Assembly: GCA_965235115.1 (NCBI GenBank)
Contig: OZ249436.1
Location: 21,888,001 to 21,952,000, forward strand
Reading direction: 5' to 3'
From: Laetmonice hystrix
Taxonomy: Eukaryota
Length of the DNA: 64,000 bases
In this document: positions 4,920 through 64,000 of the stretch, piece by piece
Position numbering within the stretch: the stretch's first letter is position 1
Layout: the number at the start of each line of letters is the position of its first letter
Program-made: the position numbers and the translations under genes
The notes under the pieces: generated by a model
What the model was told of the DNA's origin: nothing
What the model saw: only the letters and a program-made list of their open reading frames with translations
Databases searched by the model: none

Positions 4920-5440
4920 AATTAAAAAAGGAAGAATAGTCTCCTAACGCAAACTGATTCAGACGACGAATGTTGTTTGTAAATAGGCCTAAATAAGATG
5001 GAAAAACAAAAATTGTAAAATAGTAAATGAAGAAATTAAGGTTACCGCAAGGAAATATATATTCCAGTGGTTTCAGAATTATTTTAGGAACATCTCCTCA
5101 AAGAGTGGGGAATTTAATGCAAAGGAACTGCATGTTCTGCCTGAAGGCGGCATTATGTACACGTTACAGGTATAAAATGTTTTCTTTTTATTATAAATGG
5201 TTATTCTGCCTGGAAAGAAACAAATAACACAAACACGTAATGGGCCCCCGGACGGGCGCGTTGGCAACAGAGGTAGACCTACCTGCCTGTTGTCCAAAAG
5301 ATTACCTATAAATAAATTTTGCAGTTCTTGTTAAAAGGAGACTGCGCTTCAAGATACTCTATTCTTAGCATATTTTGTCATTTGATCTGGGCCATGGCAC
5401 AAATTGGGCGCTTTTGCTGTGCAATAAGTCGGCCGGGGAG

Positions 5441-7450
5441 CAGTCTCGGTAACGCCAGACTCTCAGATAAGAGAGTCTGGGAGAGTTCCGATCTTTCATT
5501 GTTACCGCATGGTGGCGCGTCGAACGTTTAGGAACATAAGCGGCTCGAGGAGGCCAGAGAAAAACAACCGACCTTTTCGCTTCACGAAAATTCGCTTGAT
5601 AAAATTGCTCGACAAGACTACGTTTTACTAAGAAAAAGTCGTCATCATGTGTAAAATATGACTCTAGGCCCCCTATTTTGGCTATAGGCCTATAGGCCGA
5701 CTGATTGCATTGTGCGGTGTAGAGCGAACACCTAGGCTGTGTGCATGTCAATTGTCCGTTGAAATTTGAAAAATCCTTAATACTATCTTACTCAGTTCCT
5801 AAAGTTCTATGGTTCATACAATAAAGTTAATTGCTTATCAAACGACATATAGGCCCACTAGCCTATATGTAGGTGACCGATTAAACAGACGCTGTCTCAG
5901 GTTTGGAAATATGTGATCTATGATATAGGCCCCTATGCCGTGCTGGGCAGTGGGCGGGCGCTTACTGGCTCACCCGCCGGGAGCGACCGGTGGGGGCCAG
6001 GGGCAGGGGAGCGAGGCGGCAGGCAGGCAAGACGCCAGAGTCCATGCAAGCAGGGATGATGCCGTCCTTGCAAAACGCCTCTAGACTAGAATATAAAACA
6101 CACATTCCGCCCAATAGCGCTCCAATATTAGTTACGGGTTTTCCTATTAAACCGAGGCTGTCTCAGGCTTGAAAATATGGCAGACTCTGACTGCGTAAGG
6201 TCAGACTTGCAGGCTCAGCCCGGCGGGAGTGACCGAGCCCGAGGTGGCGGCCGGCGCTGCAGGCGGGGTAGGCCTACCGAAGTCTGTGCATGCATGCACT
6301 CGGAACACCGACGCTGCTTCTGATTGGCTGTTTCTAGGTCATATCCGGAGGCGAAGCAGGCCTCGGATGTATGAAGCGGCCATTTTCCCGTTTTTCGTGC
6401 AAAGTAGTGTAAAGCGGTCGCACATGAACACAAGAGTAAATAGTCGACCCCTACGCACAGGCACATAGGCCTTGTTCAAATATAATTTCTCAGCATACCT
6501 ATACCTCGAATTTTCTATCGTGGAGACAAAACAGTCTCTTCTTCACCTGGGAGGAAACCCAGATATTCTGACTTTGTATAAAGTCCGACACTAGGGAGTT
6601 CTACATTTTCGGCACGGCGGCTGCGCGCGAGTTTGTTGTTTACATCCGGGTCAGTGGTCCCGACCTAGCCACCCACCCACCCCACCCCCCAGCATGGCGA
6701 CCTTCGTCGTACAGCCGAGATATGACGGAGTCAATCGTGGGTGAGCCGAGTGTGCATGCATGATGCCGCCGTTGGAGGCTTGTATAAAACGTCGCGAGAA
6801 CGCTAAAACCAGCCGTTGATCAGCATGAGCAGACTTCCGCTAAATTTGACCAATCGGCTGCAAGACGACCGGATGCAGAATTCCTGTAGCCTACTTTTTG
6901 AAAGCCGCTTATGTCTCGGAACAACGTCACAAACAGTAGATACAAAAGGTTATGATCCACTATTTATTTTCTTCTATAATTTAATGTAATGTTTTGGCCA
7001 TTTTCAATGTTTAAAATAATTTCTGCGAATGTCTGCTTGGCATGGCAGGTTAGATATGCATGTTTCCGACAATAAAAACTCAATTTACGTATAGGTTGAA
7101 TGATTAGATTTTATTTTATCGGAGCTTCTGTTACATGACCCCAGGTGGCACCACCAAATCGACCAGAATACAGGCCTGTGATACATAACATATTGGCTAA
7201 GATTTTCCAAGGAAAGTTAAGCAGATATTCTCTAATAATACACTGATATTATTGATCATAATAGTGAACTTTTTCTCTGTGGTATTTGATGAGCACATTC
7301 AGGGGGGTTATATCCATTCTTGGCCCTAGATACATTCACTCCATACCTTTTTGAGGGACAACCAGCAGCCCATTGGCTAAATAGGGGGTCATGACCAAAA
7401 GCTTCCAGACCCTCTGCTAGGGCCGCTGAGGGTCTGGATAATCGAGACTG
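5441..7450. mobile_element. Copy of 2-kb DNA-transposon-like insert
   Basis: Same TIRs and TSD as 2446-4455. Confidence 0.8.
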
Positions 7451-32936: not shown

Positions 32937-33000
32937 AACTCACGTTTCTCCTCATTCCACGTATAAATCTTTCGCCTTTTACTAAAGATTTCCGTGGGGA
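32937..33000 (+). pseudogene. U5: 5' part of a U5 gene interrupted by the retrotransposon
   Basis: U5 sequence through loop 1 to ...TTCCGTGGGGA, then an abrupt switch to non-array sequence. Confidence 0.95.
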
Positions 33001-33103
33001 TTTGGAGAATACGGAGAATTTGGGTTGATTTGGATCGATCAGTTGTTAGATTTTGGTGGTTTTCTCCTTTTGGAGTCGTAGGTTGGTCAGTTGCCTTGAA
33101 ACT

Positions 33104-33324
33104 ACCCTTGGGACCGGGTCATAATAGGTCCTTGGTTTCGTTTCTAGGCTGACCTTTCATACTGTCCGCGGGACCCGGAATATAATAGGTCCTTTTCTAT
33201 TTGCATCCGTGGGGACCCGGATTAAAATAGGTCTCTCGTTCGCTTGGGTATCTGGTGGTAGCTTCCAGCCCAACGTGATAATTCTTTATGTTAATCCGTA
33301 GAGGTCCGGAATAAAATAGGCCTC
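33104..33324 (+). other. Four tandem predicted H-type RNA pseudoknots in the retrotransposon 5' UTR
   Basis: Motifs at 33104-33131, 33165-33192, 33205-33236 and 33295-33324 have two interleaved stems with compensatory changes and an A-rich loop. Confidence 0.7.
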
Positions 33325-33440
33325 CTTTTCCTTTCCTTCTCTCTTCTTTCACCGTGTAAATGGTCTTAGTTGCCGTCACGGTGTAAGCCAACCTCTCCCC
33401 TTTTCAGTTAATTTTGTTTTCCGCCTGCCACCCCGGTGGC

Positions 33441-35027
33441 ATGGCGACAGGCATGGAATTTGATTCGGACGACACGGATTTGGCCCTGGTTATAGACGAT
33501 AATATGGCTTCAACAACTTCTCCTCTACCTGTTGCGAGGAGCAGTCAGGTGGCAGAAACGTCGGGCGTACAATCTGGAGGCATCTCCAAAGAGTTAGCCC
33601 ATCATAGTTTTCAGAGGGATTTGATCTTGTCCTCTGATGAGGACGGATGGTCGGTCCAGAAAAAGAAAACAAAAGGTGGTCGGAAGGTGGGAGGGAAAGT
33701 TTTCCCTACGTCGAAGCCAGATGGCGCGGCACCCCCATCCAAGACCGTTAAATTGAATTCAGGGCGCTCAAAGCCAGTAAAAGTATCGAGAGTAGGGCAA
33801 GACCCTGTCTTCCTGAAAAAACCCTTCTCAATTGAGGAGCAAAAGGTAAGGGCTGAAAGCCTCATTGAGAGAAGTGCGGTTTTTAAGTTTGTTGACCGGG
33901 GTAGCCCCATCTTGCGGGATGATTTTGCGGAGCCCTTGTCGGCACTGATCGATCTGAAGGAAGTTTTGTTTTTGGCCAGTATAGGTCGGGGTGACGAGTG
34001 GCACGTTACCCTGACAAATACTGCAGCGAAGGCAGCCCTCTTAACGAGTGATGGGTTTTGTGTGGGGGGACGTAGGTGCTACGTCAAAGAGGATGACACG
34101 CTTAAGGGTCGAGGAGGGACTTTCTGCTACCCGGTAGTGCGTGTACATTGGAATAGTCCTTCTTTACCTTTGAATGTCGTGCCAGATATCCTGGGGGTCC
34201 ATGGTGACATAATATCTGATGTCTTTGAAGAGTCGTCATCATCGCGATTCCCAGGGGTGTTAACTGGGGTCCGCAAACTAGTGTTTAAAATCCCTACTAA
34301 AGATAAGAGAGCCTTTTTGGAGGATCTCCCACATTTGCTTCACCCGGAGTTTGATGGGGTGAAGTTTCGCTTGTTGGTGGTGGTCAACGGCCGGAAACCT
34401 TTGTGTTTGAGGTGCCAGAAGATGGGCCATCAATCCAAAAAATGCCTCGAGACTGAGTACTGTTCGTTTTGTCGTCTCTATGGCCATAGTACGGGGGTGT
34501 GTCCTAGGAAGGGTTCCTATGCGGCAAAGCTCTTAAGTGTCCCTCAGCAAGAGGCAGATCCTGTCCCGCCGGAAGTACCGGTGGTGGAGGACGAGACGCC
34601 GCAAGGTGCAGCGGAGGGTGGTCAACAGGCTGAGCCTGTTGAGGTCCCACAGGGAGGTGATGGTGGAGAGGAGTCCACTCCTATCGATTTGTCTAGCGAA
34701 TCCATGGGACGGAAGTCTGAGCATCCCGTGCAAAAACATCAGGCCCCTATTAAAGTTTCCGAGGGCGACGTGGAACCCCCCCAACCCATTGTAGAGGGCG
34801 ACGTACCTCAGAAACTCGAGCCGGCCCCTCAGCGGGCAAGTAGGAGATCGGATAGAGGGAAACGCTCTCATGTTCCCCAGGGAGCCGTAGCGGGAGCCTT
34901 GGCAGGGCTTGCTCCTAGAGAGACCTCAGCTCCGCCAACTCTGAGGGCGAAGCTAGAACCCCATCTTGGGCCCAAGAGTCTTTTGGGGGCAGAAGGGCTT
35001 AAAGAGGGCTCTTTCCAGCCTCCCTGA
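33441..35027 (+). CDS. Retrotransposon ORF1, nucleic-acid-binding (gag-like) protein
   Basis: Open frame from 33414 (TTG); first ATG at 33441. Two CX2CX4HX4C knuckles (CLRCQKMGHQSKKC, CSFCRLYGHSTGVC), basic N-terminal patch, low-complexity C-terminus; typical of Tx1 ORF1. Confidence 0.9.
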   Translation: MATGMEFDSDDTDLALVIDDNMASTTSPLPVARSSQVAETSGVQSGGISKELAHHSFQRDLILSSDEDGWSVQKKKTKGGRKVGGKVFPTSKPDGAAPPSKTVKLNSGRSKPVKVSRVGQDPVFLKKPFSIEEQKVRAESLIERSAVFKFVDRGSPILRDDFAEPLSALIDLKEVLFLASIGRGDEWHVTLTNTAAKAALLTSDGFCVGGRRCYVKEDDTLKGRGGTFCYPVVRVHWNSPSLPLNVVPDILGVHGDIISDVFEESSSSRFPGVLTGVRKLVFKIPTKDKRAFLEDLPHLLHPEFDGVKFRLLVVVNGRKPLCLRCQKMGHQSKKCLETEYCSFCRLYGHSTGVCPRKGSYAAKLLSVPQQEADPVPPEVPVVEDETPQGAAEGGQQAEPVEVPQGGDGGEESTPIDLSSESMGRKSEHPVQKHQAPIKVSEGDVEPPQPIVEGDVPQKLEPAPQRASRRSDRGKRSHVPQGAVAGALAGLAPRETSAPPTLRAKLEPHLGPKSLLGAEGLKEGSFQPP

Positions 35028-35125
35028 GTTTATCCATTTCTTAGGTCTTATCGCACATTTTAGTTAAAATACCTTTTGAATCAATTATTTGCATTTCCAA
35101 CGCCTGACAAATTACAAATTACCTG

Positions 35126-38100
35126 ATGGCGAAGTCGTTCAAAATCACTTCACTGAACTGTAAAGGGTTACAGAATCCTATAAAGTGTGATCTTTTGGGC
35201 AGTTATCTGGCCACTAGATCTTTTGATGTCCTGTTCCTACAAGAGACACATGTGGGTGGGGCAGAGGATCAGGATCGTGTGGAGTCTGCCTGCGGTGGAT
35301 CCGGTGTTTTTAGCTTTGGCCAGTCAGATAGTTCCGGAGTGGCGGTGATTTTTAGACGAGGCCTTGAGTATGACATTAAATCGTCTAGATGCGATGACAG
35401 TGGCAGGGTCACTTCAGTAGTGGCGGAAATAAATGGCCAGGTTTTTAATTTTATCAATATATACGCTCCAAATATTGCTGTCCAGAGGAAAGCTTTTATT
35501 TCAGGCTTGGCAGACTTTGTCATGTTTGAAACAGCTGTAATTTTGGCTGGAGATTTTAACTTTATAGAGGATGTCTTCATGGATAAGAAAGGTGGGAACC
35601 CAAAGAGAGGTCTGGGGGGCAAAGTGGAAATGGAGGCCCTGGCCGGCAGATTTAATTTATTGGATGTCTTCAGACATAAAAACCCGTCGAGAAAGGAATT
35701 CTCCTTTTCTGGGGCAGGAGTAGCCACCAGGCTTGACCGGTTTTATGTTACCAAGGATTTAGTCGAGAATGTTGAGAATGTTGGGTATGTTCCCTGTTCG
35801 TATTCTGATCATAAGATAGTTGACATGCAGCTATCTTGGAAGAGTATATCTGAGGACTTTCGTCATTCAGGTCTTTGGAAATGTAATGTAACGGTTTTAA
35901 AGGATATTGATTTTGTGCGAGACATGGAAATGGAGTGGCAGGTTTTAAGCCAGTCCAAAGTCAAAGATATGGTTTGGTGGGAAGACTGTAAAGTCCGTTT
36001 TAAATCTTTAATAATTAAACATTCCAAGCGGTTGGCTCGACAACGTAGACAACATGTTTTGCAGCTTGAGAAGTCGATTCTTTTCTTTCAAGCATTGGCT
36101 GATGGGGGCTTGGAGGATTTGGAATGTGTAGTAGATGGTCTTAAACTGGACTTGGAGCATTTGTTAGAAGAAAAACTGAAAGGGGCTAGGATAAGATCTC
36201 GTGTTCAACACGTGGAGAATGACGAAAAGCCTTCCCGTTTTTTCCTGAAGCAGGAGAAAATGAATGGAAGCGCGAAGGTTATTTCCGAACTAGAGGTTGA
36301 AGGTCGAGTCATAACTGATAAAATGGACATAGTGGCAGCTTGTCGTAACTTTTATAAATGTCTGTATACGAAGGAAGACATTGATCGAGAGGTAGCACAG
36401 AAATACCTGGATCGTCTTCCTCGGTTGGCCTCTGAAGGTAGAGCAGAGTGCGAGGGGTTTTTAAGTAAGGAGGAAGTATTTTCTTCCCTAAAGTCCATGA
36501 AGGATGGGAAAAGTCCGGGTGAGGACGGCCTCCCCCAGGAATTTTATGTTGGATTTTTTCATCTGTTTGGTGGTGATTTAGTCAATGTTTTTAATCAAGC
36601 CTTTCACGCAGGCGTCTTAGGCGAGTCCCTTAGGACAGGAGTCATTAGATTGATCTGTAAAGATGTAACAAAAAAAGAGAATTTAGGTTACTGGAGGCCT
36701 ATTTCTCTTCTTAACACCGATTATAAACTTATTTCAAAGTCCATTTGTAATAGAATGGTCAAGGTGTTGGATGAAATAGTACATGAAGATCAGACGTGTG
36801 CCATTAAGGGAAGGACTATACATGATAGTTTACACTTAATTCGATCTGTCATTGACTATGCCAATGACCATGATATACCGTGTGGGATTTTGAGTCTAGA
36901 TCAGGAAAAGGCCTTTGATAGGGTTTCTCACGAGTTCCTTTTCATGGCTCTACGAAGTTATGGTTTTGGCCCCGATTTGATTAGATGGGTCCGCCTTTTG
37001 TATACGGACATTAGTTCAAGGGTGTTTGTCAATGGTATACTGTCAAATGAGTTTGAAGTCCAACGTTCGGTGAGACAAGGTTGTGGTCTGTCTCCCCTTT
37101 TATATGTTTTAGTTATCGAACCACTTGCAGTTATGATGAGAGCTGACTTCCGTATGGAAGGGCTCAAAATCCCTGGCTCACCAAGGACGGTTCAACTTGT
37201 GCACTATGCCGACGACATGAACCCAGTTGTTACATCGGAGAGAGCAGTGAGAGTCGCTCTGGAAATTGTTAATGAGTTTGGGCGGGCATCTGGGGCCAAG
37301 CTTAACAGACGCAAGTCAAAAGGCATGTGGGTTGGGAAGTGGAGGCACCGAAAGGGTGTTTTGCATGGTATTGATTTTAGTTGCGAAAGTTTAAAGTGTC
37401 TGGGAGTAGTTTTTGGTAGACACCAAAGTGAGTGGCAAAAATTGAATTGGGAACCGCTGGTCGAGAAATTGGCTAAAGTATTGGAAGGCTGGAAAGTTCG
37501 TAAAATGACGCTAGCAGGCAGAGCAGTTATTCTGAACACGGTGGCCTTATCCAAATTGTGGCACCGTGGACAAGTCATTCATATGAATGATAAGTACATT
37601 AAGAAGTTCGAGCGTATTATCTACAAGTTTCTTTGGCCTGGTGGGGCGGAGAGGGTCCAACGAAGAGTCATGGTTCTGGATAGAGTCAGGGGAGGTGTTG
37701 GCCTCGTCGACCTTGGCTCGAAGTTGGAATCATTTCGAATTAGCCATATTGGCAAGTTATTGAGAAGCCAGCTAGCCCAGAAATGGTCCGAGTTTGCTGT
37801 TTTTTATTGTGGTTTTCAGTTGAGGGCAGAAAGGCCCGAGTTTGGGAGTAATTCTAGACCTCATGCTTGGAACATTTCTCTCTTTTACGAAAGGTGTCTT
37901 CGGGAATGGAAGAAGTTTAATGAAAGTCAGAATGTCTCTTTGCAGAGCCTTACAAGTGGCGACATTTACAAAGTGTTGACCAAGAAATGGGTCATTGTGC
38001 CACTGGTTGCAACCAAGTCTGTGAACATTTTTGTTGATTTTAGTGTTTGTTGGAATAACTGTTGCCACTGGTTCCTCCCGTCGGAAATCAAAGAATTTGC

Positions 38101-38593
38101 CTGGCGGGTAGGGCAACATATACTCCCTGTTAATGACAAACTTCACAGGCACAACAAACGTTTACCTGTAAAGTGTGAACTATGTGGGGCGGGCAGGGAA
38201 ACTTTAGATCACATTTTATTGTTGTGTCCAGTTGTACGTCCGGTTGCAAGGGAAGTGGAGGTCTTGATCTCAGAGATCTTGGATGCTCCATTTTTCCTGG
38301 ACAGAGAAGTAATTTTATTCAATATTTTACCTCGGATGAGGGATCAGACACGGGGTCTGGTGTTGCTTCTCTTGAATTGTTTTAAGAGGGAGGTCTGGCA
38401 TCATCGTAATAGGGTTAAGTTGGGCTTGGCCAGACCTAACCCTGAAAGAGTGTGGTCGGCCCTGATGGCAGGGCTCAAGTGGAGGTTTTCTATTGATGTG
38501 TGTCGCCCTCAAAATACTAAATGGGTAGAAGCATGGGCAGTTGGAAAGGTTTGTGCGGGAAAAGTGGGTCAGGAATTTGTCTTCCTCTTGTAG
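35126..38593 (+). CDS. Retrotransposon ORF2: APE-type endonuclease, reverse transcriptase, C-terminal zinc finger (1155 aa)
   Basis: APE motifs SLNCKGL, FLQETH, NIYAPN, GDFN, RLDRFY, SDH. RT motifs KSPGEDG, WRPISLLNTDYK, LDQEKAFDRV, RQGCGLSPLLY, YADD. C-terminal CELC...HILLLC. Confidence 0.97.
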   Translation: MAKSFKITSLNCKGLQNPIKCDLLGSYLATRSFDVLFLQETHVGGAEDQDRVESACGGSGVFSFGQSDSSGVAVIFRRGLEYDIKSSRCDDSGRVTSVVAEINGQVFNFINIYAPNIAVQRKAFISGLADFVMFETAVILAGDFNFIEDVFMDKKGGNPKRGLGGKVEMEALAGRFNLLDVFRHKNPSRKEFSFSGAGVATRLDRFYVTKDLVENVENVGYVPCSYSDHKIVDMQLSWKSISEDFRHSGLWKCNVTVLKDIDFVRDMEMEWQVLSQSKVKDMVWWEDCKVRFKSLIIKHSKRLARQRRQHVLQLEKSILFFQALADGGLEDLECVVDGLKLDLEHLLEEKLKGARIRSRVQHVENDEKPSRFFLKQEKMNGSAKVISELEVEGRVITDKMDIVAACRNFYKCLYTKEDIDREVAQKYLDRLPRLASEGRAECEGFLSKEEVFSSLKSMKDGKSPGEDGLPQEFYVGFFHLFGGDLVNVFNQAFHAGVLGESLRTGVIRLICKDVTKKENLGYWRPISLLNTDYKLISKSICNRMVKVLDEIVHEDQTCAIKGRTIHDSLHLIRSVIDYANDHDIPCGILSLDQEKAFDRVSHEFLFMALRSYGFGPDLIRWVRLLYTDISSRVFVNGILSNEFEVQRSVRQGCGLSPLLYVLVIEPLAVMMRADFRMEGLKIPGSPRTVQLVHYADDMNPVVTSERAVRVALEIVNEFGRASGAKLNRRKSKGMWVGKWRHRKGVLHGIDFSCESLKCLGVVFGRHQSEWQKLNWEPLVEKLAKVLEGWKVRKMTLAGRAVILNTVALSKLWHRGQVIHMNDKYIKKFERIIYKFLWPGGAERVQRRVMVLDRVRGGVGLVDLGSKLESFRISHIGKLLRSQLAQKWSEFAVFYCGFQLRAERPEFGSNSRPHAWNISLFYERCLREWKKFNESQNVSLQSLTSGDIYKVLTKKWVIVPLVATKSVNIFVDFSVCWNNCCHWFLPSEIKEFAWRVGQHILPVNDKLHRHNKRLPVKCELCGAGRETLDHILLLCPVVRPVAREVEVLISEILDAPFFLDREVILFNILPRMRDQTRGLVLLLLNCFKREVWHHRNRVKLGLARPNPERVWSALMAGLKWRFSIDVCRPQNTKWVEAWAVGKVCAGKVGQEFVFLL

Positions 38594-38871
38594 AATAGTT
38601 CACCCCCCTTTTTTTAAAGGATATGGTCGGTGCATATTGAAGGATTGTTGAAATGGTGGAGTATTCCTTGAGTGTGCAGGTTTTAATGTTTGAGTGTTGC
38701 CACTTGGGAGTTTTTAACTAGTCAACTCTAGCCTTTTTCAATTTTCCTTTTGTACTTAGTTTGCTCTTTACTATATTGTCTGGCATGTAGGCTTTAGGGT
38801 CTGGTGCCAGGGTTATCGTTAAGAGTAGTTATTGGTTTTTAGAGTCTTTTATAAAAAAAAAAAAAAAAAAA

Positions 38872-38945
38872 AAAGATTTCCGTGGGGAGGAACATTACAA
38901 TGAGTCTATAGACGAATTTTTGCATCCCTGCTCTAAGAGCGGGGT
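38872..38945 (+). pseudogene. U5: 3' part of the interrupted U5 gene (variant A)
   Basis: AAAGATTTCCGTGGGGAGGAAC, Sm site and 3' hairpin resume right after the poly(A). Confidence 0.95.
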
Positions 38946-59053: not shown

Positions 59054-59137
59054 AAATGAATAATGAAGAATAGTCTCCTAACGCAAACTGATTCAGACGA
59101 AGAATGTTGTTTATGAATAGGCCTAATTGGGATGGAA

Positions 59138-59697
59138 AATTTTATTCAATATTTTACCTCGGATGAGGGATCAGACACAAGGTCTAGTGTTACTTCTCTT
59201 AAATTGTTTTAAGAGGGAGGTCTGGCATCATCGTAATAGGGTTAAGTTGGGCTTGGCCAGACCTAACCCTGAGAGAGTGTGGTCGGCCCTGATGGCAGGG
59301 CTCAAGTGGAGGTTTTCTATTGATGTGTGTCGCCCTCAAAATACAAAATGGGTAGAAGCATGGGCAGTTGGAAAGGTTTGTGCGGGAAAAGTGGGTGAGG
59401 AATTTGTCTTCCTCTTGTAGAATAGTTCACCCCCCTTTTTTTAAAGGATATGGTCGGTGCATATTGAAGGATTGTTGAAATGGTGGAGTATTCCTTGAGT
59501 GTGCAGGTTTTAATGTTTGAGTGTTGCCACTTGGGAGTTTTTAACTAGTCAACTCTAGCCTTTTTCAATTTTCCTTTTGTACTTAGTTTGCTCTTTACTA
59601 TATTGTCCGGCATGTAGGCTTTAGGGTCTGGTGCCAGGGTTATCGTTAAGAGTAGTTATTGGTTTTTAGAGTCTTTTATAAATAAAATAAAAAAAAA
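59138..59697 (+). mobile_element. 5'-truncated copy (~560 bp) of the retrotransposon: ORF2 C-terminus, 3' UTR, A-rich tail
   Basis: Colinear with 38311-38871; tail ATAAATAAAATAAAAAAAAAAAA is followed by the U5 target GATTTCCGTGGG. Confidence 0.95.
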
Positions 59698-60153
59698 AAA
59701 GATTTCCGTGGGATTTGGAGAATACGGAGAATTTGGGTTGATTTGGATCGATCAGTTGTTAGCTTTTGGTGGTTTTCTCCTTTTGGAGTCGTAGGTTGGT
59801 CAGTTGACTTGAAACTACCCTTGGGACCGGGTCATAATAGGTCCTTGGTTTCGTTTCTAGGCTGACCTTTCATACTGTCCGCGGGACCCGGAATATAATA
59901 GGTCCTTTTCTATTTGCATCCGTGGGGACCCGGATTAAAATAGGTCTCTCGTTCGCTTGGGTATCTGGTGGTAGCTTCCAGCCCAACGTGATAATTCTTT
60001 ATGTTAATCCGTAGAGGTCCGGAATAAAATAGGCCTCCTTTTCCTTTCCTTCTCTCTTCTTTCACCGTGTAAATGGTCTTAGTTGCCGTCACGGTGTAAG
60101 CCAACCTCTCCCCTTTTCAGTTAATTTTGTTTTCCGCCTGCCACTCCGGTGGC

Positions 60154-61838: not shown

Positions 61839-64000
61839 ATGGCGAAGTCGTTCAAAATCACTTCACTGAACTGTAAAGGGTTACAGAATCCTATAAAGTG
61901 TGATCTTTTGGGCAGTTATCTGGCCACTAGATCTTTTGATGTCCTGTTCCTACAAGAGACACATGTGGGTGGGGCAGAGGATCAGGATCGTGTGGAGTCT
62001 GCCTGCGGTGGATCCGGTGTTTTTAGCTTTGGCCAGTCAGATAGTTCCGGAGTGGCGGTGATTTTTAGACGAGGCCTTGAGTATGACATTAAATCGTCTA
62101 GATGCGATGACAGTGGCAGGGTCACTTCAGTAGTGGCGGAAATAAATGGCCAGGTTTTTAATTTTATCAATATATACGCTCCAAATATTGCTGTCCAGAG
62201 GAAAGCTTTTATTTCAGGCTTGGCTGACTTTGTCATGTTTGAAAGAGCTGTAATTTTGGCTGGAGATTTTAACTTTATAGAGGATGTCTTCATGGATAAG
62301 AAAGGTGGGCACCCAAAGAGAGGTCTGGGGGGCAAAGTGGAAATGGAGGCCCTGGCCGGCAGATTTAATTTATTGGATGTCTTCAGACATAAAAACCCGT
62401 CGAGAAAGGAATTCTCCTTTTCTGGGGCAGGAGTAGCCACCAGGCTTGACCGGTTTTATGTTACCAAGGATTTAGTCGAGAATGTTGAGAATGTTGGGTA
62501 TGTTCCCTGTTCGTATTCTGATCATAAGATAGTTGACATGCAGCTATCTTGGAAGAGTATATCTGAGGACTTTCGTCATTCAGGTCTTTGGAAATGTAAT
62601 GTAACGGTTTTAAAGGATATTGATTTTGTGCGAGACATGGAAATGGAGTGGCAGGTTTTAAGCCAGTCCAAAGTCAAAGATATGGTTTGGTGGGAAGACT
62701 GTAAAGTCCGTTTTAAATCTTTAATAATTAAACATTCCAAGCGGTTGGCTCGACAACGTAGACAACATGTTTTGCAGCTTGAGAAGTCGATTCTTTTCTT
62801 TCAAGCATTGGCTGATGGGGGCTTGGAGGATTTGGAAGGTGTAGTAGATGGTCTTAAACTGGACTTGGAGCATTTGTTAGAAGAAAAACTGAAAGGGGCT
62901 AGGATAAGATCTCGTGTTCAACACGTGGAGAATGACGAAAAGCCTTCCCGTTTTTTCCTGAAGCAGGAGAAAATGAATGGAAGCGCGAAGGTTATTTCCG
63001 AACTAGAGGTTGAAGGTCGAGTCATAACTGATAAAATGGACATAGTGGCAGCTTGTCGTAACTTTTATAAATGTCTGTATACGAAGGAAGACATTGATCG
63101 AGAGGTAGCACAGAAATACCTGGATTGTCTTCCTCGGTTGGCCTCTGAAGGTAGAGCAGGGTGCGAGGGGTTTTTAAGTAAGGAGGAAGTATTTTCTTCC
63201 CTAAAGTCCATGAAGGATGGGAAAAGTCCGGGTGAGGACGGCCTCCCCCAGGAATTTTATGTTGGATTTTTTCATCTGTTTGGTGGTGATTTAGTCAATG
63301 TTTTTAATCAAGCCTTTCACGCAGGCGTCTTAGGCGAGTCCCTTAGGACAGGAGTCATTAGATTGATCTGTAAAGATGTAACAAAAAAAGAGAATTTAGG
63401 TTACTGGAGGCCTATTTCTCTTCTTAACACCGATTATAAACTTATTTCAAAGTCCATTTGTAATAGAATGGTCAAGGTTTTGGATGAAATAGTACATGAA
63501 GATCAGACGTGTGCCATTAAGGGAAGGACTATACATGATAGTTTACACTTAATTCGATCTGTCATTGACTATGCCAATGACCATGATATACCGTGTGGGA
63601 TTTTGAGTCTAGATCAGGAAAAGGCCTTTGATAGGGTTTCTCACGAGTTCCTTTTCATGGCTCTACGAAGTTATGGTTTTGGCCCCGATTTGATTAGATG
63701 GGTCCGCCTTTTGTATACGGACATTAGTTCAAGGGTGTTTGTCAATGGTATACTGTCAAATGAGTTTGAAGTCCAACGTTCGGTGAGACAAGGTTGTGGT
63801 CTGTCTCCCCTTTTATATGTTTTAGTTATCGAACCACTTGCAGTCATGATGAGAGCTAACTTCCGTATGGAAGGGCTCAAAATCCCTGGCTCACCAAGGA
63901 CGGTTCAACTTGTGCACTATGCCGACGACATGAACCCAGTTGTTACATCGGAGAGAGCAGTGAGAGTCGCTCTGGAAATTGTTAATGAGTTTGGGCGGGC
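61839..64000 (+). CDS. ORF2 of second copy (APE + RT through YADD), partial at window end
   Basis: ATG GCG AAG TCG at 61839; constant offset to the first copy at 61982 and 63671 (no net indel). Its absence from the ORF track fits a frame with no stop before the window edge. Confidence 0.88.
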   Translation, partial: MAKSFKITSLNCKGLQNPIKCDLLGSYLATRSFDVLFLQETHVGGAEDQDRVESACGGSGVFSFGQSDSSGVAVIFRRGLEYDIKSSRCDDSGRVTSVVAEINGQVFNFINIYAPNIAVQRKAFISGLADFVMFERAVILAGDFNFIEDVFMDKKGGHPKRGLGGKVEMEALAGRFNLLDVFRHKNPSRKEFSFSGAGVATRLDRFYVTKDLVENVENVGYVPCSYSDHKIVDMQLSWKSISEDFRHSGLWKCNVTVLKDIDFVRDMEMEWQVLSQSKVKDMVWWEDCKVRFKSLIIKHSKRLARQRRQHVLQLEKSILFFQALADGGLEDLEGVVDGLKLDLEHLLEEKLKGARIRSRVQHVENDEKPSRFFLKQEKMNGSAKVISELEVEGRVITDKMDIVAACRNFYKCLYTKEDIDREVAQKYLDCLPRLASEGRAGCEGFLSKEEVFSSLKSMKDGKSPGEDGLPQEFYVGFFHLFGGDLVNVFNQAFHAGVLGESLRTGVIRLICKDVTKKENLGYWRPISLLNTDYKLISKSICNRMVKVLDEIVHEDQTCAIKGRTIHDSLHLIRSVIDYANDHDIPCGILSLDQEKAFDRVSHEFLFMALRSYGFGPDLIRWVRLLYTDISSRVFVNGILSNEFEVQRSVRQGCGLSPLLYVLVIEPLAVMMRANFRMEGLKIPGSPRTVQLVHYADDMNPVVTSERAVRVALEIVNEFGR

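Follow-up and report, generated by a model that had tools for sequence, protein, structure and literature searches.

A probable Tx1-type retrotransposon with a strong preference for one nucleotide of the U5 snRNA genes of Laetmonice hystrix

A U5 small nuclear RNA (snRNA) gene of Laetmonice hystrix is split by a non-LTR retrotransposon (one that lacks long terminal repeats) that we read, with a probability of roughly 0.87, as a young, low-copy member of the L1/Tx1 group, most likely of the Tx1 clade, which inserts by target priming and prefers one site in U5. The element lies in a stretch of 64,000 nucleotides (positions 21,888,001 to 21,952,000 of the forward strand of contig OZ249436.1), called the window here, which is a tandem array of U5 genes. 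Across the genome the family inserts repeatedly and independently at one U5 nucleotide, just 3′ of loop 1 and in the orientation of the gene. This is a strong preference and not a strict specificity. A preliminary description made from the window alone had reported the split gene and proposed a U5-specific family with a possibly new target. The finding itself was confirmed and its interpretation was partly supported, being right in kind but overstated in specificity and novelty.

Rfam detects 24 intact U5 copies in the window, each scoring 91.7 bits, and a weaker match at 32938-33051 (51.3 bits) that is the gene interrupted by the element. The parts of the window described here are on the forward strand, and a slash marks a junction. 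The element occupies 33001-38874 (5,874 bp). The 5′ part of the split gene (32938-33000) matches the opening 63 nt of intact copies, and its last bases, AAAGATTTCCGTGGGGA (32984-33000), are the target duplication's 5′ copy, so that the 5′ junction at 33000/33001 reads ...GCCTTTTACTAAAGATTTCCGTGGGGA/TTTGGAGAATACGG... (with more upstream sequence, ...TTTTACTAAAGATTTCCGTGGGGA/TTTGGAGAATACGG). At the 3′ junction (38874/38875) the sequence is ...TCTTTTAT-A22/GATTTCCGTGGGGAGGAACATTAC..., and by comparison with intact U5 the 3′ part of the gene runs on to the normal 3′ end at 38945, opening with the other duplication copy, GATTTCCGTGGGGA, at 38875-38888. The duplication thus measures 14-17 bp, made up of GATTTCCGTGGGGA and as many as three ambiguous A residues. 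Within the element are a 5′ untranslated region (UTR) that begins with TTTGGAGAATACGG (33001-33440), the uninterrupted open reading frames (ORFs) ORF1 (33441-35027, 528 amino acids) and ORF2 (35126-38593, 1155 amino acids), a 3′ UTR (38594-38852) and a homogeneous poly(A) tract of 22 residues (38853-38874), the final three of which may be derived from the target. The size of about 5.87 kb, the two open ORFs, the pure tail and the duplication of up to 17 bp given in the preliminary description were all borne out.

Two further copies lie at the same site in the window. Copy 2 (59141-59700, 560 bp) is 5′-truncated, covers element positions 5311-5873 at 98% identity and has a tail rich in A. It is followed by a 13-nt remnant of the U5 target, GATTTCCGTGGGA (59701-59713; GATTTCCGTGGG is 59701-59712), and then by copy 3, which starts at element position 1 and extends from 59714 past the window edge at 64000. 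The 3′ end of copy 3, beyond the window, adjoins a U5 3′ half (locus L011). Hence the earlier claims of a second A-tail plus GATTTCCGTGGG junction with a third copy directly after it, and of three copies touching the U5 site, stand at the level of the junctions. Two corrections apply: ORF1 of copy 3 is frameshifted (its ORF2 is open), and the composite of copies 2 and 3 is repeated with identical junctions 17.6 kb downstream, outside the window (L048, L049). The 5′ end of copy 2 meets spacer 88 bp past an intact U5 gene (window 59054-59141). About 0.9 kb of the array, comprising spacer and a U5 5′ half, is replaced there, the next U5 gene being expected near 59978.

A census of 3′ junctions was made over the 627-Mb genome, which consists of 35 contigs (prefix C below). 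The 3′-terminal 22-mer of the element occurs 49 times with two or fewer mismatches, versus once for a control, and the exact junction A7+GATTTCCGTGGG occurs 25 times, versus none for the reversed pattern, which excludes chance. The intact U5 site TTTTACTAAAGATTTCCGTGGG has 137 exact occurrences, versus none for its reversed control, and the U5 genes sit in several arrays on different contigs. Among 54 classified 3′ junctions, 31 consist of an A-tail joined to GATTTCCGTGG in U5 (read as A-tail plus (GA)TTTCCGTGG) and 23 are outside U5, an on-target share of roughly 55-60%. Of the on-target junctions, 22 came from 39 anchor matches, with one junction missed by the regular expression added by eye, and the other nine were L025, seven further junctions and L149. 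The count leaves out C3:27949591(-) and L154, where the anchor matched but no element lies upstream, and L029, which has no A-tail. When obvious array duplicates were merged (L048=L049, C1 21953559/21971178, C20 7213745/7234098 and L151/L152), about 28 on-target versus 22 other junctions were left. The on-target loci are spread over six contigs (C1 21.92-22.06 and 30.97 Mb; C3 13.63 and 13.72; C18 24.17; C20 7.21-7.24; C29 18.33; C30 4.97 Mb), and the position right after loop 1 noted in the window is repeated there at a single nucleotide. The conserved positions of the U5 consensus in Rfam agree with the target core TTTTACTAAAGATTTCCG, which we take to be identical in human U5.

A shared junction could say nothing of preference if one or a few U5 insertions had been multiplied by tandem duplication, unequal crossing-over or gene conversion. 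Such events did occur: besides the repeated copy 2 and copy 3 composite, the C1 21953559/21971178 and C20 7213745/7234098 pairs have near-identical tails, and truncation point 5311 is common to the copies at C1 21947677 and 21980772. They leave unexplained, however, the roughly 28 junctions on six contigs that remain after merging. The 5′ truncation points of on-target copies vary (element positions 1, 38, 1800, 4229, 5201, 5311, 5626 and others, with stubs of 84-95 bp), as do the short sequences before the A-run (TATAAAA, TATAAATAAA, TATAATTGAAA, TATAATGAGAAA and TATAATGGGGAAA), and thus most on-target copies are separate insertions. Moreover, a subfamily that is about 85% identical and has another 3′ end is found at the same U5 nucleotide (L040, L041), as are the 84-95 bp copies and two junctions that have an A-tail only, C30:4970855 (L046) and C1:30973695 (L042). 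Array duplication as the source of the pattern is therefore largely refuted and in our estimate very improbable, although it accounts for part of the local copy number.

In L046 and L042, array spacer leads straight into an A-rich tract and then into the U5 3′ half. Both have the look of A-tail-only insertions accompanied by loss of upstream DNA, or of what was left when elements were deleted. A short interspersed element (SINE)-like partner at the L042 site was considered and rejected, because what lies upstream of the A-tail is the usual spacer of the U5 array, found also in L029 and L044.

The off-target copies set the limits of the preference. With 23 of 54 junctions outside U5 and variable duplications, the element also acts like an ordinary L1-type long interspersed element (LINE). 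Strict site specificity of the kind reported for R2 and for the Phytophthora element Utopia places nearly all copies in the target; here 31 of 54 junctions lie there. The family is therefore not strictly U5-specific as first proposed, and yet tabulation of the 3′-end flanks does not place most copies outside U5. Every off-target copy with a readable 5′ end is 5′-truncated. GATT directly follows the A-run in four of the 23 non-U5 junctions (L021, L026, L150 and L156; L150 reads AAAAGATTTCTG), and L033 sits in AAAGAATATCTGGGGAG, which closely resembles the U5 site. Such bases would be expected of an endonuclease with a preferred core around AAA/GATT. Unusually long duplications, about 85-100 bp, were seen at L008/L055 (C5:25.95 Mb) and L015 (C6:36.47 Mb), the other off-target copies having 5-13 bp.

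The 43% of classified junctions that are off target, together with their variable duplications, also resemble what a generalist LINE leaves behind, and integration might be essentially random, as for L1, with selection sparing the copies that fall in redundant U5 arrays. Survivorship of this kind cannot explain why 31 junctions share a single nucleotide and a single orientation within a 122-nt gene while kilobases of spacer are nearly empty: the sole spacer insertions in the array are the L151/L152 pair. Nor is it easily reconciled with the off-target copies that survive in unique DNA, some of them young (L005 and L020 are 98.9% and 98.1% identical to the window element). We give this explanation very little weight and retain preferential insertion at U5.

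Several points weigh against preferential, repeated insertion at U5 by an active element. Beyond the 23 non-U5 junctions, whose target duplications range from 5 to about 100 bp, the 3′-UTR search scored 40 of 63 candidates and so gives at least 40 genomic matches, a gap that the 22-mer count partly fills. Some on-target copies are array duplicates (the three U5 pairs merged above), and the two C3 copies possibly represent one event. The 5′-truncated on-target copies usually have no U5 5′ half (window copy 2, L016 and L028), which implies deletions or recombination in their history. Finally, current activity is something we infer from the sequences.

L047 and L050, the two full-length copies in which the 5′ half of U5 is preserved, have the fixed 14-17 bp duplication. 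All six occurrences of the 5′-end motif are in the C1 array, each with the same 5′ end after target sequence, and four of these full 5′ ends come after another copy's tail plus GATTTCCGTGGG(G)A. These junctions suggest a mechanism in which the nick positions, and the endonuclease as the determinant of specificity, are inferred. The apurinic-like endonuclease (APE) of the ORF2 protein (ORF2p) would nick the bottom strand of the U5 target AAAGATTTCC opposite ...CTAAA/GATTTCC..., within 5′-GGAAATC(TTT)^AGT-3′. The freed T-rich 3′ end would pair with the poly(A) tail and prime cDNA synthesis (target-primed reverse transcription), and a top-strand cut about 14 nt downstream, after GTGGGGA, would give the fixed duplication of full-length copies. 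As the 5′ duplicate would keep the upstream half of the site, it could be hit again, producing head-to-tail tandems with exactly one 13-14 nt remnant between the copies. Re-use of this kind, to which the four tandem 5′ ends point, implies that the first nick probably needs no sequence 3′ of the duplication. In the truncated copies, the U5 5′ half may have been removed by an upstream target deletion accompanying abortive insertion or by later recombination.

The encoded proteins are those of an APE-type LINE. ORF2p has Pfam matches to Exo_endo_phos (1.6e-11), RVT_1 (8.5e-36) and zf-RVT (6e-9), with the endonuclease at residues 10-229, the reverse transcriptase (RT) at 516-761 (YADD at 694-697) and zf-RVT at 981-1038. 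The catalytic-type residues D143, N145, D204, D228, H229 and Y694-A695-D696-D697 are invariant over 20 homologues. An N-terminal endonuclease plus RT in ORF2, a poly(A) 3′ end, a target-site duplication and frequent 5′ truncation are all present. The ORF1 protein (ORF1p) gave no significant Pfam match, Transposase_22 included. It contains two C-x2-C-x4-H-x4-C knuckles (322-335 and 341-354), the first of which (C322, C325, H330, C335) does not vary among 14 ORF1 homologues. In an AlphaFold model based on the alignment of these homologues, residues 130-355 have a predicted local distance difference test score (pLDDT) of 81-95, and the model's top Foldseek matches are proteins with tandem RNA-recognition motifs (RRMs; HuR RRM1-2, E 8.6e-7). 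By this model ORF1p is of type I, with a tandem RRM core at about 130-315 and CCHC knuckles, between disordered N- and C-terminal parts.

The element looks recently active, as the preliminary description had held. Eight of the nine copies that align over the whole of ORF2 lack a stop, and two of the nine, the window copy and C1:21976321, are nearly identical. Identity among copies of the C1 U5 array is 98-100%, and element tails are long and pure.

Assignment to the Tx1 clade is most likely correct and is supported by proxies, namely the type I ORF1p and grouping with U2 elements at the Keno site; to that extent the earlier label of Tx1-type stands, indirectly, the one labelled reference compared being human L1 ORF2p. 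That protein is also the nearest solved structure by sequence (8sxt, E 2.8e-73). The element could instead be a site-preferring member of the L1 clade proper whose snRNA targeting is convergent, and no protein named Tx1 was among the matches listed in either search (120 of 134 with E <= 0.001, and 120 of 141). We consider this unlikely. The RRM plus CCHC combination, with no Transposase_22 found by Pfam, is called consistent with Tx1 in animals in the available text of PMC5203782 (Ivancevic 2016). In addition, the element falls within a starred clade of the ORF2 tree whose A-tails adjoin U2 at GTATCTGTTC or TCTGTTCTTATCAG, which is the 3′ target of KenoDr1 given in PMC6136364 (citing Kojima and Fujiwara 2004). 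Human LINE-1 is like the U5 element in combining APE with RT, in ending in poly(A) and in being subject to 5′ truncation, and its variable duplications recall those of the off-target copies of the U5 element. It differs in having a Transposase_22-type ORF1p and no gene-specific target, whereas the U5 element has RRM plus CCHC and most of its insertions at one site.

The closest protein homologue among 5.8 billion sequences, a collection that does not include Repbase, is 41% identical, and all named matches are distant (Patella, Bradybaena, salmonid, Coilia and Xenopus). A second search, started from the Xenopus tropicalis match, gave no record named Tx1. Both this genome and metagenome contigs contain relatives, 30-40% identical, that adjoin genes for U1, U2 (at the Keno site), U5, 5S rRNA and histone H2B, a range of targets in keeping with the Tx1 clade. 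When 80 metagenome loci encoding relatives were scanned with Rfam, same-strand U2 was found at nine, U1 at five, U5 at two (L102 and L111, with L098 added by motif) and 5S at one; at L097 a pair of U4 genes lies on the opposite strand. The U2 junctions of the relatives are A-tail/GTATCTGTTC or A-tail/TCTGTTCTTATCAGC, matching the 3′ target that PMC6136364 gives for KenoDr1. L098 has U5 on both sides, split at a different position from that of the window element, inside loop 1 (...TTCGCC/element/A-tail/TTTACTAAAGATTTCCG), and the A-rich 3′ end of L111 adjoins U5 near the U5 5′ end. L102 has U5 on its 5′ side only, the gene being broken after GAATGAG; it was not accepted as a U5-specific element, as there is no U5 within 900 bp past the end of ORF2, and is suggestive only. 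The U1-adjoining metagenome loci (L082, L084, L099, L126 and L127) show two positions, A-tail/CTTACCTG and A-tail/TACCGTGATC, and the 5S-adjoining locus L085 reads A-tail/CCGGTTCTCGTCCGATC.

Within the same genome, families that are 37-38% identical in ORF2 terminate at U1, at the Keno site of U2 and in histone H2B coding sequence. The U1 family has four poly(A)/GTGATCG junctions, at L140 (C1:71067900-71077500), L146 (C5:25964100-25973800), C1:71091130 and C1:71099228, and the U1 genes it hits lie in clusters with tRNA genes. The U2 family is represented by L141 and L142. The H2B family, 39% identical in ORF1, is at L138 (C3:22545600-22555400, minus strand), L139 (C5:13646500-13656300) and L145 (C13:7651100-7660500). 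Its poly(A) adjoins H2B coding sequence near the N-terminus (flank translation KGAKKAA...KKRKKRR...YSIYIYKVLKQVHPDTG), and the flanks are homologous over kilobases at all three loci, so that the three insertions are possibly not independent. We know of no described LINE that targets histone genes. The literature search turned up no mention of a U1- or histone-targeting LINE, although it was hardly aimed at these.

A FastTree analysis of 63 ORF2 proteins, with Shimodaira-Hasegawa (SH)-like supports only and several long branches flagged, places the U5 element as sister to the H2B family (95, starred). Both fall in an 11-row clade (100, starred) with the same-genome U1 and U2 families, and that clade is nested among U2-flanked elements, a starred clade of 21 rows holding L060, L061, L065, L068 and L069. 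As L098 and L102 are placed apart from the U5 element, targeting of U5 apparently has more than one origin.

The element resembles several known systems. Keno (Kojima and Fujiwara 2004, cited in PMC4494074 and PMC6136364) is likewise an APE-type LINE that occupies a single conserved position in a spliceosomal snRNA gene present in many copies, and Keno-site elements are relatives in the tree, including the same-genome sister family L142. Keno inserts in U2 about 37 nt from the 5′ end, however, whereas the window element is in U5, and the U2-flanked relatives are only 33-38% identical to it in ORF2. R1, TRAS and SART are APE-type site-specific LINEs of insects that belong to the R1 clade. They have precise junctions like those of the U5 element but are reported to be far more strictly specific, compared with about 43% of junctions off target here. 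The target choice of R1Bm and SART1Bm is attributed to the APE endonuclease in PMC1919474 and PMC7265360, as far as their available text goes.

The choice of U5 as a target is not new. In the portions of PMC4494074 (Kojima 2015, Genome Biol Evol 7:1702) available to us, many Tx1 families are said to show target preference, and the Fig. 3 legend, in naming the targets of those Tx1 families for which one is known, includes 'U5, U5 snRNA'. Thus a U5-targeting Tx1 family was catalogued by 2015, with the same target gene and seemingly the same clade, the likeness resting on the legend text. The available text of PMC4640811 (Kojima and Jurka 2015) gives as reported targeters of snRNA genes only Keno and Utopia (U2), Dada-U1 (U1) and Dada-U6 (U6), which suggests that the U5 family had not been described beyond the database. 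In our literature search, no U5-targeting LINE was described outside the PMC4494074 legend.

Two further features of the window were noted. The 5′ UTR has four spaced GGGACC(C)GG...ATAATAGGTCC motifs, each with a short inverted repeat (33105-33330), which are also present in copy 3 at 59820-60040 and could be promoter or protein-binding elements. Tandem Repeats Finder returned no rows for the 5′ UTR. In the U5 array (757-59053) two spacer classes alternate, one of 1,046 bp and one of about 2,975-2,998 bp, in a higher-order pattern, and the identical scores of the 24 intact genes indicate strong homogenisation of the array.

Site-specific LINEs are selfish elements that persist by hitting redundant genes, and they are being explored as programmable insertion systems. 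The U5 family is a clean and apparently young example, with open ORFs, a precise 14-17 bp duplication and a measurable off-target spectrum with an AAAGATT core. Its use as a gene-insertion tool is speculation and is made less attractive by the roughly four in ten fixed insertions that are off target and by the destruction of a U5 gene with each on-target insertion. With somewhat less than even confidence, we suggest that the family is distinct from the one in Repbase and forms one arm of a local Tx1-type radiation that divides the multicopy genes of one genome, an endonuclease scaffold having been repeatedly retargeted. Comparison of the endonucleases of the co-resident U5, U1, U2 and H2B families could reveal the residues that read the target and, if this suggestion is true, the radiation would be a natural panel for mapping the determinants of APE target choice.

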